Positions 26,751 to 32,000 of a DNA stretch of 32,000 nt are shown here, piece by piece. Every line of letters begins with the position of its first letter. Positions within the stretch are counted from its first letter, which is position 1. The notes under the pieces are model-generated. The model was given only the letters and a program-made list of their open reading frames with translations, ran no database searches and was not told where the DNA came from. Source of the DNA: Candidatus Kuenenia stuttgartensis (GTDB lineage: Bacteria; Planctomycetota; Brocadiia; Brocadiales; Brocadiaceae); the NCBI RefSeq assembly GCF_900232105.1, contig NZ_LT934425.1:3720001-3752000 (forward strand), read 5' to 3'. The position numbers and the translations under genes are program-made.

Positions 26751-27011
26751 TTGAACGACGAAGAGATTGAAAAAGGTGTAACCTCAATAGTTGCAGAGGT
26801 TACAGAGCTGGATGAAAAAGAGATCTGGGAGAAAAGGGATGCGAATTTTTTTCAGGACCTTGAAATTGATTCTCTTCTGGCGCTTGAGATTTTAGCGCTT
26901 ATAGAAAAAAAATTTAAAGTGCAAATTCCAGAAGAAAAACTTGTAGATATTACTTCTTTGAGCGCCACGATTGGTTTAACAAAATCGGTTTTGGCAGAGA
27001 GTGGGAAGTAA
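26751..27011 (+). CDS. acpP: acyl carrier protein
   Basis: The 86-aa protein has the phosphopantetheine site LEIDSLLALE (Ser codon 26871-26873). The TTG start has AGGAGG 6 nt upstream. Confidence 0.85.
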   Translation: MNDEEIEKGVTSIVAEVTELDEKEIWEKRDANFFQDLEIDSLLALEILALIEKKFKVQIPEEKLVDITSLSATIGLTKSVLAESGK

Positions 27012-27059: not shown

Positions 27060-27509
27060 ATGATACTTTTTGAGGAAATACGATCTCTTCTTCCTCAAAA
27101 ATATCCTTTCATATTTATTGATAGAGCGATTGAGTTTGAAGAAAGCAAGAGAATCGTATGCGTAAAAAACATTTCCGGTAATGAACCTGTCTTTGTAGGA
27201 CATTTCCCTGATTTTGCCATAATGCCTGGTGTTTTAATCATTGAGGCGATGGCGCAAGCTTCAATAATCTTGTTCAGAAAGAGTCTTCCTTCCAGAAACG
27301 ATGAAGATGCTGTTTTTTTATTGGCATCAGTCAATAATGCCAGATTTACAAAACCCGTCGTTCCCGGTGATCAGCTTACCATAGAAGTGATTGTTGAAAA
27401 GATTGTTTCAAGAGGTGCTATAGTTCAGTCTGTTGTGAAAGTTCAGGAAAAGGTCGTTGCTAAAGCAGCTTTGACTTTTGGTATTGTGGAAAAGAGTTCG
27501 TTGGTTTAA
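27060..27509 (+). CDS. fabZ: 3-hydroxyacyl-ACP dehydratase (FabZ family)
   Basis: LLPQKYPFIFIDRAIEF, GNEPVFVGHFPDFAIMPGVLIIEAMAQ (catalytic His context) and FTKPVVPGDQL are present. Confidence 0.9.
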   Translation: MILFEEIRSLLPQKYPFIFIDRAIEFEESKRIVCVKNISGNEPVFVGHFPDFAIMPGVLIIEAMAQASIILFRKSLPSRNDEDAVFLLASVNNARFTKPVVPGDQLTIEVIVEKIVSRGAIVQSVVKVQEKVVAKAALTFGIVEKSSLV

Positions 27510-27527: not shown

Positions 27528-28748
27528 ATGGATAAACGAGTCGTTATAACTGGTGTTGGGATGATAACTCCCATTGGTTCGGGGAAAGATGTTTTTTGGA
27601 ACGCCCTTACCGCCGGGGAATCGGGCGTATCTGAAGTGTCATGTATAGATACTTCAGGATACAGAGTACACAAAGGGTGCGAGGTCAAGAATTTTAATTA
27701 TTCAGATTATATTAAAAATGGTGTCTTAAAAGAGATAGGCAAGGGTTCGCAATTTGCTATAGCGGCTACGAAACTTGCGTTAGATGATGCTAAAATGGAT
27801 TTGTCTAAAATTGAATTGGAACGAATGGGGGTGTCTGTCGGGACAACTGCCGGTGAAATACAAATCTTAGAGAAAGTAAATTATATCAGACATAGAGACG
27901 GGGAGGACAAAGTAGCCCCTGATTTGTTTTTAATGCATCCCTGTAACAATATCCCTGCTAACATTGCAATTGAATTTGGTTTGAAAGGCCCCAATACGAT
28001 AATACCCACTGCGTGTGCAGCGGGGAATTATGCTATTGGTTATGCTTACGATTTAATTAGATTTGGAAGAGTAGATGTTATGGTTGCGGGGGGTTCTGAT
28101 CCTTTTTCGAAAGTGGCTTTTACCGGTTTTGCCCGTTTAGGTGCTATAGCGCCAGAAATTTGTCAGCCTTTTGATAAAAATAGAAAGGGCATGATGGTTG
28201 GTGAAGGTGCGGGAATGCTTGTTTTGGAGTCGCTGGAGTCTGCGGAGAAAAGAAACGCTAATGTTTATGCTGAGATTATTGGTTACGGTTTGAGTTGCGA
28301 TGCTTACCATATTACCATACCACATCCGGATGGCGAAGGTGTTATTTCTGCAATGATAAAAGCATTAAAGAGCGCAAACCTCAGGCCTGAAGATGTTCAA
28401 TACATAAGCGCTCATGGTACCGGCACTCCTGCAAATGATAAGGCGGAAACTATTTCAATAAAAAAGGTCTTTGGAGAAAAACCTGAACATCTGGCAATTA
28501 GTTCAATAAAATCGATGATAGGGCATACAATGGGTGCTGCCAGTGTTATAGAAGCAATTGCTTGCGCCTTAGCGGTGCAAAACGACATTATTCCTCCTAC
28601 TATAAATTATGTTACGCCTGATCCTGAATGTGATTTGGATTATGTGCCCAATGTCATGAGAAAACAAGAGGTAAACATTGCGTTGAACAATGCTCATGCC
28701 TTTGGGGGCAATAACAGTTGTCTGGTAATAAAGAAATTTACCAATTAG
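27528..28748 (+). CDS. fabF: beta-ketoacyl-ACP synthase II (FabF type), catalytic triad intact
   Basis: The active-site Cys is in PTACAAG (Cys163 codon 28014-28016). The His residues are in CDAYHIT and [22 protein letters not shown] and [13 protein letters not shown] are also present. Confidence 0.9.
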
Positions 28749-28846
28749 AATGTTTGTAAAGAAAATTTATTTTAAAAATAATTGAAATAATTATATTTAA
28801 GAACGATATTTCCAAAGTTGAAGCGTATAAAATAAGAGGTTTATAA

Positions 28847-30085
28847 ATGGGCGATACGAGGATTGTAATTACAGGAATATCTGTCATCTCCCCTCTTGGA
28901 GAAACGAAAGAGGACTTTTGGCAAAATTTAATAAACGGGGTATCCGGGATTAAACCGGTAACGTTATTTGATGTAACTCATTTTAATAGTAAACAGGCAG
29001 GAGAGATCACGGATTTTGACCCTAAAATTTATTTGGGGAAGAAGGGTATTCGCCATATCGACAGAACGTCCCTTCTGGTATCTTCGGCTACGTGTCTGGC
29101 GATTAAGGATGCTAATCTTGAGAATAATACTTACAATGAAGATGAATTAGGCATCGTTGTAGGCTCTACTTATGGCAGTATTGACAGTATAAGTTCTTTT
29201 GATTTTCAATCACTTAGAGAGGGTCCAAACTATGTAAATCCGATGGACTTTCCTAATACGGTAATAAACGCACCTGCCAGCCGGGCGTCGATTTTTTGCA
29301 AGGCAACAGGTTTAAGTACAACAATTTCTAACGGGGTAACGAGCAGCATTGACGCTATTATATATGCATCTGATTTTCTGCGAATGGGAAGGGTAAAGGC
29401 GGTAATTGCAGGAGGAGTTTATGGATTAGGCCATGACATTTTTTGGGGAGCGCATAGTTCAAAAATCTTGGCGGGGAGTAATAGCGGTACCCTTGAAATT
29501 AGTGCGCCTTTTGATAAGAGACGTAATGGCATGGTCCTGGGAGAAGCCTCTGCGCTGGTTATACTCGAAACTTTAGAGGATGCGTTAAAGAGGAATGCAA
29601 ATATTTACGCGGAAGTAAGGGGTTATGGAACAGCCTTTGATCCTAAGATGTCCACCAGTAAAGAATACCAGACAGACGGCAGCATAAGGGCTATCCGAAG
29701 CGCTTTAGAAGATGCAAAATTAACGCTTCATGATATTTCCTGCATATCTGCTAATGCATATTCCGGAGTATATGGCGATGCAATGGAGGTAAGGGCTTTA
29801 AAAGAAGTATTTGGTATGCGCGCGAAACTTATTCCAGTGACTGCTATCAAATCAATGACAGGTGAATGTCTTGACGCATCAGGGGCTTTACAGACAGTGG
29901 CGGCGGTGATGTCTCTTAACACGCATACTATTCCTCCGACAATTAATTATAAGGAACCTGATCCGGAATGCGACCTAGGTTTGGTTGTTGAAAGAGCGGC
30001 GACTGTTCCGGTAAAAAATGTCCTTATAAATTCATCCTCACGTTTAGGAAATAGCTCTTCCCTGATAGTATCAAAGTTTAAATAA
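28847..30085 (+). CDS. ketosynthase-like protein lacking the Cys-His-His triad (chain-length-factor-like partner)
   Basis: It aligns along its full length with the upstream FabF (RVVITG/RIVITG, GRV..V.AGG, PFDK.R.GM..GE, RNAN.YAE..GYG, IPPTINY..PDPECDL). At the catalytic positions it has Val164 (codon 29336-29338) for Cys, Met for His (DPKMST) and Asn for His (SANAYSG). GECLDASG replaces GHTMGAAS. Confidence 0.85.
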   Translation: MGDTRIVITGISVISPLGETKEDFWQNLINGVSGIKPVTLFDVTHFNSKQAGEITDFDPKIYLGKKGIRHIDRTSLLVSSATCLAIKDANLENNTYNEDELGIVVGSTYGSIDSISSFDFQSLREGPNYVNPMDFPNTVINAPASRASIFCKATGLSTTISNGVTSSIDAIIYASDFLRMGRVKAVIAGGVYGLGHDIFWGAHSSKILAGSNSGTLEISAPFDKRRNGMVLGEASALVILETLEDALKRNANIYAEVRGYGTAFDPKMSTSKEYQTDGSIRAIRSALEDAKLTLHDISCISANAYSGVYGDAMEVRALKEVFGMRAKLIPVTAIKSMTGECLDASGALQTVAAVMSLNTHTIPPTINYKEPDPECDLGLVVERAATVPVKNVLINSSSRLGNSSSLIVSKFK

Positions 30086-30090
30086 GTTTC

Positions 30091-31560
30091 ATGTCATCGA
30101 CCAAGCCTATCAAGCCACATATTCAATCCACGAAAATCGATACATTATATCCTTCTTACGATGTAATTGTAATTGGAGCGGGTATCGCAGGCCTTATTTG
30201 TGCCGCATTTCTTGCTAAAAGCGGGAAAAAGGCACTTCTTATTGAACAGCATTTTATTCCAGGCGGATATTGTACTTCGTTTAAAAGAAAAGGATTTCTT
30301 TTTGATGCTGCTGTTCATCACATCGGTGGTTGTGGTAAATGGAGTGTTGTTGGGCGTTGTTTTAAAATGCTCGGGATAGAGATGGATTTTTACCACTTAG
30401 ATCCCATGGATAATCTGATTTTTCCAACATTCAGCATTGAAATTCCTGCCGACTTAGACGAATATTTATTACGTTTACAGAAAAGGTATCCACATGAAAA
30501 GGACAATATTAAGTGGTTCTTTCAAGACTTTATAAGGCTTTATCGTGCTACATTTCATAATGAAAAAAGTCAGATTATAGAAAAATACAAAGACATGACT
30601 TATGGAATGATGCTCGATCATTTTTTTGATGATAGTGAGTTAAAGATGGTTCTTTCTGGGCAGTGGGGTTATGTAGGTTTAGCGCCGTCGAAAGCATCTG
30701 CGATTGCCATGTCTCAAATGATGATAAATTATCTTAAAGATGGCGCCTTTTTCCCAAAAGGCGGAACGCAAGAGTTTGCAAATGCAATTTTTAGGAAATT
30801 TATTGATTTTGGCGGACACGTTATGTTATCATCCAAAGTCAAAAAAATCTTAAAGAAAGGACCCTCCGTTAACGGTGTTAAATTAAATGATGACAAAGAG
30901 ATACATTCGAGCGTTGTTGTGTCGAATATAGATGCAAGACAGACGTTTTATCATTTGTTGAATGATGAAAATGATGTAGATGCGGTGTACCTTAAAAACA
31001 TTGAAGGAATGAAGGAAAGCTGTTCTTTTTTTCTCTTGTATCTGGGAATTGGAAAAGGGATAGATTTAAATACTTTAAAAAGAGGATTTTATTTATCCGG
31101 CTCAAATTTTGACTCTATTGATAGTGAGTGGATGTATATATCTGTTCCAACCAGTATATGCCAGGCCCTTTCCCCTCAAAATAAACAAATAATCTCCATA
31201 GTAGTGTATAAGAAGGAAGAATTTTATAAAAATGTGACGGATTGGGAATTGCTCAAACAAAATATAGTTTCAAGTACTTTGGAGAGACTAGAAAGTTATT
31301 TACCTGATATAAAAAAACATATAGAAATAATAGAGGTGGCTACTCCTAAAACCCTGGAGCGTTACACATTAAATACCAATGGGGCAGCTTATGGCTGGGC
31401 AGTAAGCGTTGATCAAATATGGGAACAAAGGCTTTCGCCGACAACACCAATTAGCGGCCTTTATTTGGCAGGCCATTGGACAAGACCTGGCCCTGGCATA
31501 TGTGCTGTTGTTTCTTCGGGATGGAGTGTTGCTAATTTAATTTTGAAGAATTGGAGGTAA
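30091..31560 (+). CDS. FAD-dependent oxidoreductase of the phytoene desaturase (CrtI/CrtD-like) family
   Basis: The N-terminus is YDVIVIGAGIAGLICAAFLAKSGKKALLIEQHFIPGGY and the C-terminus is GLYLAGHWTRPGPGICAVVSSG. The start lies 5 nt after the preceding gene. Confidence 0.85.
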   Translation: MSSTKPIKPHIQSTKIDTLYPSYDVIVIGAGIAGLICAAFLAKSGKKALLIEQHFIPGGYCTSFKRKGFLFDAAVHHIGGCGKWSVVGRCFKMLGIEMDFYHLDPMDNLIFPTFSIEIPADLDEYLLRLQKRYPHEKDNIKWFFQDFIRLYRATFHNEKSQIIEKYKDMTYGMMLDHFFDDSELKMVLSGQWGYVGLAPSKASAIAMSQMMINYLKDGAFFPKGGTQEFANAIFRKFIDFGGHVMLSSKVKKILKKGPSVNGVKLNDDKEIHSSVVVSNIDARQTFYHLLNDENDVDAVYLKNIEGMKESCSFFLLYLGIGKGIDLNTLKRGFYLSGSNFDSIDSEWMYISVPTSICQALSPQNKQIISIVVYKKEEFYKNVTDWELLKQNIVSSTLERLESYLPDIKKHIEIIEVATPKTLERYTLNTNGAAYGWAVSVDQIWEQRLSPTTPISGLYLAGHWTRPGPGICAVVSSGWSVANLILKNWR

Positions 31561-31564
31561 AAAT

Positions 31565-32000
31565 ATGAAAAAAATGATGCTCATTAATCCACATAAGCCC
31601 GGGAGGCATGGAGAAGAGAGTATTACGGTAATTGTTCAGATGCCGTTAAACCTTGCTTATATTAAGGCCCTTACGCCTGGTGATTGGGAATTTGATGTTA
31701 TTGATGAAAATATCGAACTGGCAATTGATGATAATGGCGAACTTACTTTCGCGCCGGTGGACCTTGTTTGTATTACATCAGTGACCTACCAATCTCCCAG
31801 GGCATACAAGATTGCTACTGCATGTAAAAGGAAAGGTATGACCGTAATAATGGGAGGGATACATGCGTCTGTAATGCCTGAAGAGGCTTCAAAGTACGTG
31901 GACACTGTTTTTATTGGTGAGGCAGAGGAAGTCTGGCCACGGGTAATAAAAGACTTTGAAGCAGGAAAGTTAAAGAAGGTTTACGATGGTGGTTTACCGC
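31565..32000 (+). CDS. B12-binding-domain radical SAM protein, N-terminal 145 codons (3' end beyond window)
   Basis: The ATG at 31565 has GGAGG 7 nt upstream, and the frame is open to the window end. LINP..NLAYIKALTP..DLVCITSVTYQSPRAYKIATACKRKGMTVIMGGIHASVMPEEA..DTVFIGEAEEVW matches the cobalamin-binding N-domain of class B radical SAM enzymes. The CxxxCxxC motif would lie outside the window. Confidence 0.7.
   Translation, partial: MKKMMLINPHKPGRHGEESITVIVQMPLNLAYIKALTPGDWEFDVIDENIELAIDDNGELTFAPVDLVCITSVTYQSPRAYKIATACKRKGMTVIMGGIHASVMPEEASKYVDTVFIGEAEEVWPRVIKDFEAGKLKKVYDGGLP

Follow-up and report, generated by a model that had tools for sequence, protein, structure and literature searches.

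The ladderanes rank with the strangest of natural products, and the route of their biosynthesis has yet to be solved; the leading candidate locus is Cluster I of the anammox bacteria, in which two adjacent genes encode homologues of the ketosynthase (KS) FabF, the second of them lacking the whole catalytic triad. This second gene is the subject of the present analysis. It was examined at positions 28847-30085 of a 32,000-nucleotide stretch of Candidatus Kuenenia stuttgartensis DNA (RefSeq assembly GCF_900232105.1, contig NZ_LT934425.1, positions 3,720,001 to 3,752,000 of the forward strand), the whole of which is hereafter called the window; positions refer to the window unless genome coordinates are indicated. 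The gene is the Kuenenia representative of the amxFabFmut family (Kuste3606 orthologue), and its product very probably serves as the non-catalytic subunit of amxFabFhet, a ketosynthase that is an obligate heterodimer and whose other subunit, amxFabF2, is encoded immediately upstream. Both the dead active site and the heterodimer were published before (sequence in 2009, experiment in 2026), and with this insight already in the literature the window adds no new discovery. The identity of the gene, the loss of its triad, its conservation and its synteny are read here directly from sequence, and a modest added value lies in the view of the clade to which the protein belongs and whose members share a conserved Lys/Glu pseudo-active site and are often fused to an active KS. 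At this level the analysis offers a moderate lead, and the data suggest that the arrangement of an active and a dead KS is general to specialised lipid pathways.

Known heterodimeric ketosynthases

For Kuste3606, Rattray et al. (2009; PMC2649909, Table 2) listed Val163, Asn298, Tyr300, Gly302, Lys328, Glu333, Gln342 and Arg392, and all eight residues are found in the window protein; the same authors suggested that the dead FabF feeds a pre-made ladderane unit into fatty acid synthesis. The experimental work is described in a preprint dated 2026-05-21 (Granatino et al., bioRxiv 10.64898/2026.05.19.726425), which is also the source of the PDB entries 9S5H and 9S5I. KustE3605 and KustE3606 of K. 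stuttgartiensis are each inactive alone; when co-expressed, they co-elute, decarboxylate malonyl-amxACP (amxACP being the acyl carrier protein, ACP, of the cluster) and yield acetoacetyl-amxACP. The pair from Brocadia fulgida was crystallised as a heterodimer (9S5H/9S5I) with one productive tunnel, which runs through the amxFabF2 active site and has Phe135, Thr138 and Val139 from the dead subunit in its lining, and with a second, defunct tunnel. Mutants of the dead subunit at Phe135 and Val139 have an altered preference among C6, C8 and C16 cross-linking probes, and amxACP touches both subunits, over about 250 and 300 square angstroms. Both KS genes are reported to be expressed, and the authors state that their data refute the 2009 idea of a dead FabF recruiting a pre-made ladderane unit (Granatino et al., 2026). 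The recognition of the two FabF homologues as one heterodimeric enzyme removes this early recruitment model and constrains the product of the pathway.

The window pair belongs to the same family as amxFabFhet and, as far as the Kuenenia proteins are concerned, comes from the same species. The same Val/Asn/Glu replacements, tunnel residues and six-gene operon are found in both, and nothing of substance differs. The heterodimer, its activity only as a pair and the geometry of its tunnel have been demonstrated by others on the same or orthologous proteins. A preliminary description of the locus, made from the sequence alone, had proposed a heterodimer resembling a KS and its chain length factor (CLF), with the dead protein shaping an acyl pocket, and this proposal agrees with what the preprint reports for these very proteins.

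In type II polyketide synthases (PKSs), an inactive KS-beta (the CLF), which usually carries Gln at the Cys position, pairs with an active KS-alpha and sets the chain length. The actinorhodin CLF (PDB 1TQY chain B) resembles amxFabFmut in having a KS fold without the active Cys, in being encoded beside an active KS and in forming an obligate heterodimer, with the growing chain housed in a tunnel at the interface. Unlike KS-beta, amxFabFmut has Val164 in place of the usual Gln; it is nearer to Bacillus subtilis FabF (242.4 bits) than to 1TQY chain B (135.4 bits), as is the profile of its clade (431 versus 299 bits), and its operon, unlike a type II PKS cluster, contains FabZ and no cyclases or aromatases, the neighbours being ACP, FabZ, a CrtI-like protein and a B12 radical SAM enzyme. 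On these grounds (Val instead of Gln, greater nearness to FabF and a context of the fatty acid synthase, FAS, type), amxFabFmut works like a CLF but is not a classical KS-beta member. Among KS-CLF pairs of the highly reducing or polyene type, the Iga11-Iga12 pair of ishigamide biosynthesis (PDB 6KXD) and the aryl-polyene pair ApeO-ApeC are like the window pair in that a KS and a dead partner form a heterodimer acting on reduced, fatty-acid-like chains. Iga11 is the closest structural relative of amxFabF2 (Granatino et al., 2026) and is matched by the amxFabF2 of the window with 343 bits, whereas the CLF subunits of the Iga and Ape systems are not among the best 60 PDB matches of amxFabFmut or of its clade profile; the closest likeness of the dead subunit is B. 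subtilis FabF.

Identity of the gene and loss of the catalytic triad

The two KS genes and the positions discussed in this section are the following (all on the + strand):

27528-28748, +: amxFabF2, active ketosynthase partner (Cys163-His296-Lys328-His333; matches 9S5H chain B; falls in the partner-KS clade in the trees)
28847-30085, +: amxFabFmut, dead FabF-like subunit, Kuste3606 orthologue (matches 9S5H chain C)
29249-29263, +: codons of Phe135-Pro-Asn-Thr138-Val139, helix-loop-helix segment lining the acyl tunnel of the partner (invariance; mutagenesis of the preprint)
29336-29338, +: codon of Val164, at the position of the nucleophilic Cys (alignments)
29753-29755, +: codon of Asn303, at the position of the first catalytic His (alignments)
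29849-29866, +: Lys335 (kept) to Glu340, which stands where FabF has its second catalytic His; both residues invariant throughout the dead clade
29891-29893, +: codon of Gln349, Glu in active ketosynthases, a change that accompanies His340->Glu (listed as Gln342 in Table 2 of Rattray et al., 2009)

The open reading frame (ORF) of amxFabFmut is intact and encodes 412 amino acids from an ATG start, with a ribosome-binding site (AAGAGG, 28834-28839) 7 nucleotides 5' of the ATG. Its product contains both ketoacyl-synthase Pfam domains (PF00109, 6e-36; PF02801, 4.1e-25) and matches chain C of 9S5H over residues 4-412 against 3-411 (E 6.3e-226, 753 bits), just as the amxFabF2 of the window matches chain B (E 5.8e-245); the Brocadia orthologues are 78-84% identical to it, and the best genome match is a Candidatus Kuenenia sp. 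metagenome-assembled genome with 99% identity. Against the canonical FabF model TIGR03150 the protein scores 328.1 bits, below the cut-off of 493.75, and the triad is absent. It aligns with the adjacent FabF end to end (34% identity, E 6e-72, a single 6-residue gap), and the collinearity of the two proteins, already pointed out in the preliminary description, holds over the full length without a shift of register.

The catalytic triad of FabF is composed of a Cys, the His of the AHGTG motif and the His of the GH(T/L)xGA motif. The catalytic set of amxFabF2 is intact (Cys163, His296, Lys328 and His333), and the same columns are occupied in the dead KS by Val164, Asn303, Lys335 and Glu340 in BLASTP, HMMER and MAFFT alignments, Lys335 being the retained active-site Lys. 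Since Val, Asn and Glu replace Cys-His-His, the dead subunit can neither become acylated nor decarboxylate malonyl-ACP. The four motif pairs quoted in the preliminary description were found as given (PTACAAG/SNGVTSS, CDAYHIT/FDPKMST, SAHGTG/SANAYS and GHTMGAAS/GECLDASG, with the Val164 codon at 29336-29338). Its account of the triad needs one correction: the changes of Cys to Val164 and of His to Asn303 stand, whereas the change of His to Met does not concern a triad residue. The third triad change is that of His to Glu340 in GECLDASG, a motif that had been listed in the text of that description; the mislabelled residue is the Met of its heading. The His-to-Met position belongs to the non-catalytic DAYH motif, is absent from the active-site list of Rattray et al. 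(2009) and is occupied by Lys in 65 and by Met in 47 of 116 anammox orthologues (62-98% identity), the set used for all orthologue counts below. A register shift hiding a triad was considered and rejected: BLASTP, HMMER (against B. subtilis FabF, 4LS6) and MAFFT give an identical register, and the triad is never restored.

An AlphaFold2 model of the dead KS monomer, built on 32 orthologues, has a mediocre confidence (predicted local distance difference test, pLDDT, 65.8) and was used only to confirm the FabF-like fold. Its low-confidence regions are 34-72, 109-165 and 200-231, the latter two of which span the helix-loop-helix (110-140) and the interacting helix (196-206). Residues 110-130 are disordered in a homodimeric crystal of the dead subunit alone (Granatino et al., 2026); the shallow alignment is an equally possible cause of the low confidence of the model in those regions.

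Conservation among anammox bacteria

The Cys position is held by Val in 82 orthologues, Thr in 25, Ile in 6 and Glu in 3, and never by Gln; that of the first His by Cys in 62, Asn in 53 and His in 1. Lys335 is present in all 116 and Glu at the second His position in 115, and Phe135, Thr138 and Val139, all present in the window protein, are invariant in 116/116. Altogether, 153 of the 412 positions are conserved at 98% or more. The losses from the triad are thus due neither to chance nor to decay.

With a threshold of 60% identity, the dead KS has orthologues in 13 of 14 genomes of the anammox order, and none was found among 285 other Planctomycetota genomes searched. In G279, a Scalinduaceae-level genome with a completeness of 94% in about 10 contigs, the search at E <= 1e-70 revealed no orthologue of amxFabFmut, only a paralogue similar to Kuste2805 (38% identity); G233, a genome of the same genus, has the orthologue. 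Either an assembly gap or a real loss may apply to G279.

The Cluster I operon

The two KS genes lie in a tightly packed operon, with all genes on the same strand in the order ACP-FabZ-FabF-dead KS-CrtI-like-B12 radical SAM. This operon is the anammox "Cluster I" or "ladderane" lipid cluster, Kuste3603-3608. All 20 anammox loci compared (from Kuenenia, Brocadia, Jettenia and further metagenome-assembled genomes, MAGs) have the genes in this order as far as the contigs reach, and in 17 of them the six are complete. The other parts of the operon in the window are:

26751-27011, +: amxACP, acyl carrier protein, Kuste3603 orthologue, first of the six genes (PF00550, 1.1e-13)
27060-27509, +: amxFabZ, variant of 3-hydroxyacyl-ACP dehydratase, Kuste3604 orthologue (PF07977, 1.6e-25; NF000582 FabZ, 9.2e-45)
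28749-28846, +: spacer between the two KS genes, 98 nucleotides, AT-rich, containing the ribosome-binding site AAGAGG (28834-28839)
30091-31560, +: CrtI/phytoene-desaturase-like flavoprotein, Kuste3607 orthologue (PF01593, TIGR02734); starts 5 nucleotides past the dead KS stop
31565-32000, +: N-terminal part of a B12-binding radical SAM enzyme, Kuste3608 orthologue (PF02310); the gene extends 1025 nucleotides past the window

A published report deals with the characterisation of amxFabZ (PMC10139942). The cut radical SAM fragment matches TIGR04072 weakly, with 20.8 bits against a cut-off of 360. The spacer between the KS genes, in which a terminator-like site and an Rfam family were looked for and none found, measures 98 nucleotides versus 4-48 at the other junctions of the operon, and about 14 to 100 in other anammox loci. 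The text of the preprint places amxFabFmut just upstream of amxFabF2, whereas in the window and in all 20 anammox loci it lies downstream; this downstream position agrees with the order KS-alpha then KS-beta and with that of the active-then-dead fusions described in the next section.

A wider clade of dead FabF-like proteins

Among 1.84 billion representative sequences searched exhaustively with HMMER, most of those nearest to the window protein are not canonical FabFs. Among the best 150 matches, 88 are single-domain proteins, of which just 10 have the Cys-His-Lys-His set and about 70 the pattern x-x-Lys-Glu. The invariant columns in an alignment of 68 dead relatives include Lys335, Gly339 and Glu340, with Glu340 as the sole family-specific invariant, and position 349 is Gln in 54 of 70 dead sequences versus Glu in 8 of 9 active ones. 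Glu340 and Gln349 may represent a relocated acidic partner for the buried Lys, and the invariant Lys-Glu pair may be a selected structural feature, a counter-charge for that Lys, and not debris. The F-P-N-T-V tunnel segment marks the dead clade as a whole. The clade can be recognised by a Cys position at which the residue varies, a small or polar amino acid in place of the first His, invariant Lys335 and Glu340, a change of Glu349 to Gln in most members and F-P-N-T-V.

Among the best matches there are also two-domain proteins of about 800 amino acids, and in 37 of 39 of them an active KS is followed by a dead one. As these fusions have the same active-then-dead order as the window genes, they support an obligate pairing (the 'Rosetta stone' argument).

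In quick maximum-likelihood trees (LG+G4 and LG+C20+F+G4, with support by the Shimodaira-Hasegawa-like approximate likelihood ratio test, SH-aLRT), all dead sequences fall into one clade with a support of 99 in both. Next to the window protein, it comprises the Kuste2805-like paralogue, two proteins from Omnitrophota, one from a MAG labelled Deltaproteobacteria and the C-terminal halves of the fusions. In a second clade (SH-aLRT 98-99), amxFabF2 groups with three further KSs of Kuenenia and with the N-terminal halves of the fusions, and canonical FabFs lie outside both clades in both trees. The trees cover dead KSs, partner KSs and canonical FabFs; the relation to the actinorhodin, Iga12 and ApeC CLFs is judged from HMMER comparisons with PDB chains. 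With the dead-clade profile, 9S5H chain C obtains 585 bits, ordinary FabFs about 430 and the actinorhodin CLF 299; hence one member of the clade has a solved structure, and the clade is distinct from the classical KS-beta family. A catalogue of type II PKSs published in 2023 (PMC10132072) describes as 'unexplored' a KS-CLF group from outside the actinobacteria that lies near the FabF root, with data that include Planctomycetes and Omnitrophica, and this group probably overlaps the dead clade.

The two Omnitrophota loci place dead KSs, 39-43% identical to the window protein and with Tyr or Phe/Cys/Lys/Glu at the four positions, in FAS-type clusters outside the anammox bacteria. One contig (L022:7956-12050) has the order deadKS-FabG-ACP-FabZ-KS. 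On the other (L021:7980-13029), the dead KS lies about 2.5 kb from an amxFabF2-like KS (52% identity); a DUF4143 ATPase gene is inserted in this cluster, which also encodes an NAD-binding protein of the acyl-reductase type (PF07993) and contains a CrtI-like gene.

On balance, these data lean slightly towards amxFabFmut being not an anammox invention but a member of a large dead clade of single origin that co-evolves with partner KSs, and towards heterodimeric condensing enzymes being a widespread module of the FAS-II type. Dead subunits may then have co-evolved with a dedicated clade of active partners, often fused to them as KS-deadKS didomains, and may occur in Omnitrophota, in the MAG labelled Deltaproteobacteria and in many metagenomic lineages.

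Proposed function and alternative explanations

The proposed job of the dead subunit is structural. Keeping the thiolase fold of FabF, it would dimerise with amxFabF2, itself inactive alone; its helix-loop-helix (Phe135, Thr138 and Val139) would form one wall of the single productive acyl tunnel, and it would provide about half of the docking surface for the ACP of the cluster. The pair would decarboxylate malonyl-ACP and perform the condensation, apparently with a preference for short chains (about C6-C8), within a FAS-II-like pathway (ACP, FabZ, CrtI-like desaturase, B12 radical SAM) thought to make ladderanes. In vivo, the dead subunit may set the chain length of the product, and this product would be a ladderane. 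Control of chain length had also been put forward in the preliminary description; it was shown with cross-linking probes only, and for real elongation products it is inferred.

Several points weigh against such a function. Elongation past acetoacetyl-ACP was not observed in vitro and the chain-length effect rests on alpha-bromoacyl cross-linking probes, the link between Cluster I and ladderanes is without experimental demonstration, and the key source is a preprint not yet peer reviewed (Granatino et al., 2026). The F-P-N-T-V motif is kept across the whole dead clade and not in anammox bacteria only, and by itself is therefore no sign of a ladderane-specific tuning. The preference for the heterodimer is explained in the preprint by an electrostatic asymmetry (Granatino et al., 2026), which was not reproduced by a linear count of charges in Kuenenia: the helix-loop-helix (110-140) has -2 versus -3, and the interacting helices of the pair +1 versus 0, with no asymmetry. 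Such a crude linear count neither supports nor refutes an argument about the three-dimensional surface potential.

Three other explanations have to be considered. The dead subunit could mainly be a stabilising or activating scaffold and a docking partner for the ACP that takes no part in the choice of chain length, in which case 'chain length factor' would be a misnomer. This is unlikely, although it accords with the inactivity of amxFabF2 alone and its failure to crystallise, with the contact of the ACP with both subunits (about 250 and 300 square angstroms), with tunnel residues conserved clade-wide instead of tuned by lineage and with the fact that no measurement was ever made of real elongation products; on the other side, the relative reactivity towards the C6, C8 and C16 probes is shifted in the variants Val139Gly and Phe135Gly/Val139Gly. 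Far less probable still is an enzyme with a non-canonical reaction of its own, such as the loading of a pre-made ladderane unit by an altered active site, as proposed by Rattray et al. (2009). The pseudo-active site is indeed non-random, with Lys335 and Glu340 invariant and only small or polar residues in the place of the first His, and the second tunnel reaches the dead site and held a polyethylene glycol (PEG) molecule in the crystal. Yet position 164 (Val, Thr, Ile or Glu) offers no nucleophile, neither activity nor cross-linking is seen with the protein alone, and Monte-Carlo docking predicts no preferred position of the ACP at the entrance of its tunnel; the authors of these experiments state that their data refute the proposal, which can be regarded as already largely refuted (Granatino et al., 2026).

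The loss of all three triad residues, taken alone, would also fit a decaying fabF duplicate, a functionless pseudogene in the making. This was rejected on the conservation pattern among the 116 orthologues and has the smallest probability of all: with 62-98% identity among the sequences, the 153 positions conserved at 98% or more speak against decay, the ORF is intact in every orthologue examined, the synteny is fixed and both genes are expressed according to the preprint. A non-catalytic subunit working in a heterodimer with amxFabF2 is the explanation preferred here.

Other dead ketosynthase genes of the Kuenenia genome

Eight KS genes are present in the Kuenenia genome, a single contig of 4.41 Mb, and amxFabFmut is not the only dead one that directly follows an active KS gene. 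About 190 kb downstream of the window (region 3937236-3941722 in genome coordinates), behind genes for a phosphopantetheinyl transferase and a B12 radical SAM enzyme, an active KS (3939257-3940468, 403 amino acids, Cys-His-His) is followed by a dead KS (3940487-3941722, 411 amino acids, Phe/Asn/Lys/Glu). In a third cluster (845893-850421), which contains two active KS genes and a 353-amino-acid KS-like gene similar to Kuste3348, the active KS at 845893-847107 overlaps the start of the shortened, degenerate KS at 847095-848156. These two cases correspond to Kuste2804/2805 (region Kuste2802-2805) and Kuste3346/3348 of Rattray et al. (2009) and Javidpour (2016), with Kuste2805 and Kuste3348 as the two remaining non-canonical FabF/FabB paralogues of K. 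stuttgartiensis (Rattray et al., 2009), and the preprint makes no mention of either pair (Granatino et al., 2026).

The Kuste2805-like paralogue, present in 13 of 14 genomes of the anammox order, belongs to the same dead clade as amxFabFmut and has Phe/Asn/Lys/Glu at the four positions, but it differs in its sequence (38% identity), in its neighbours and in a diverged tunnel motif. The 353-amino-acid KS-like protein has Ser at the Cys position and has lost the Lys and both His. By analogy with the window pair, Kuste2804/2805 and Kuste3346/3348 are candidate heterodimers.

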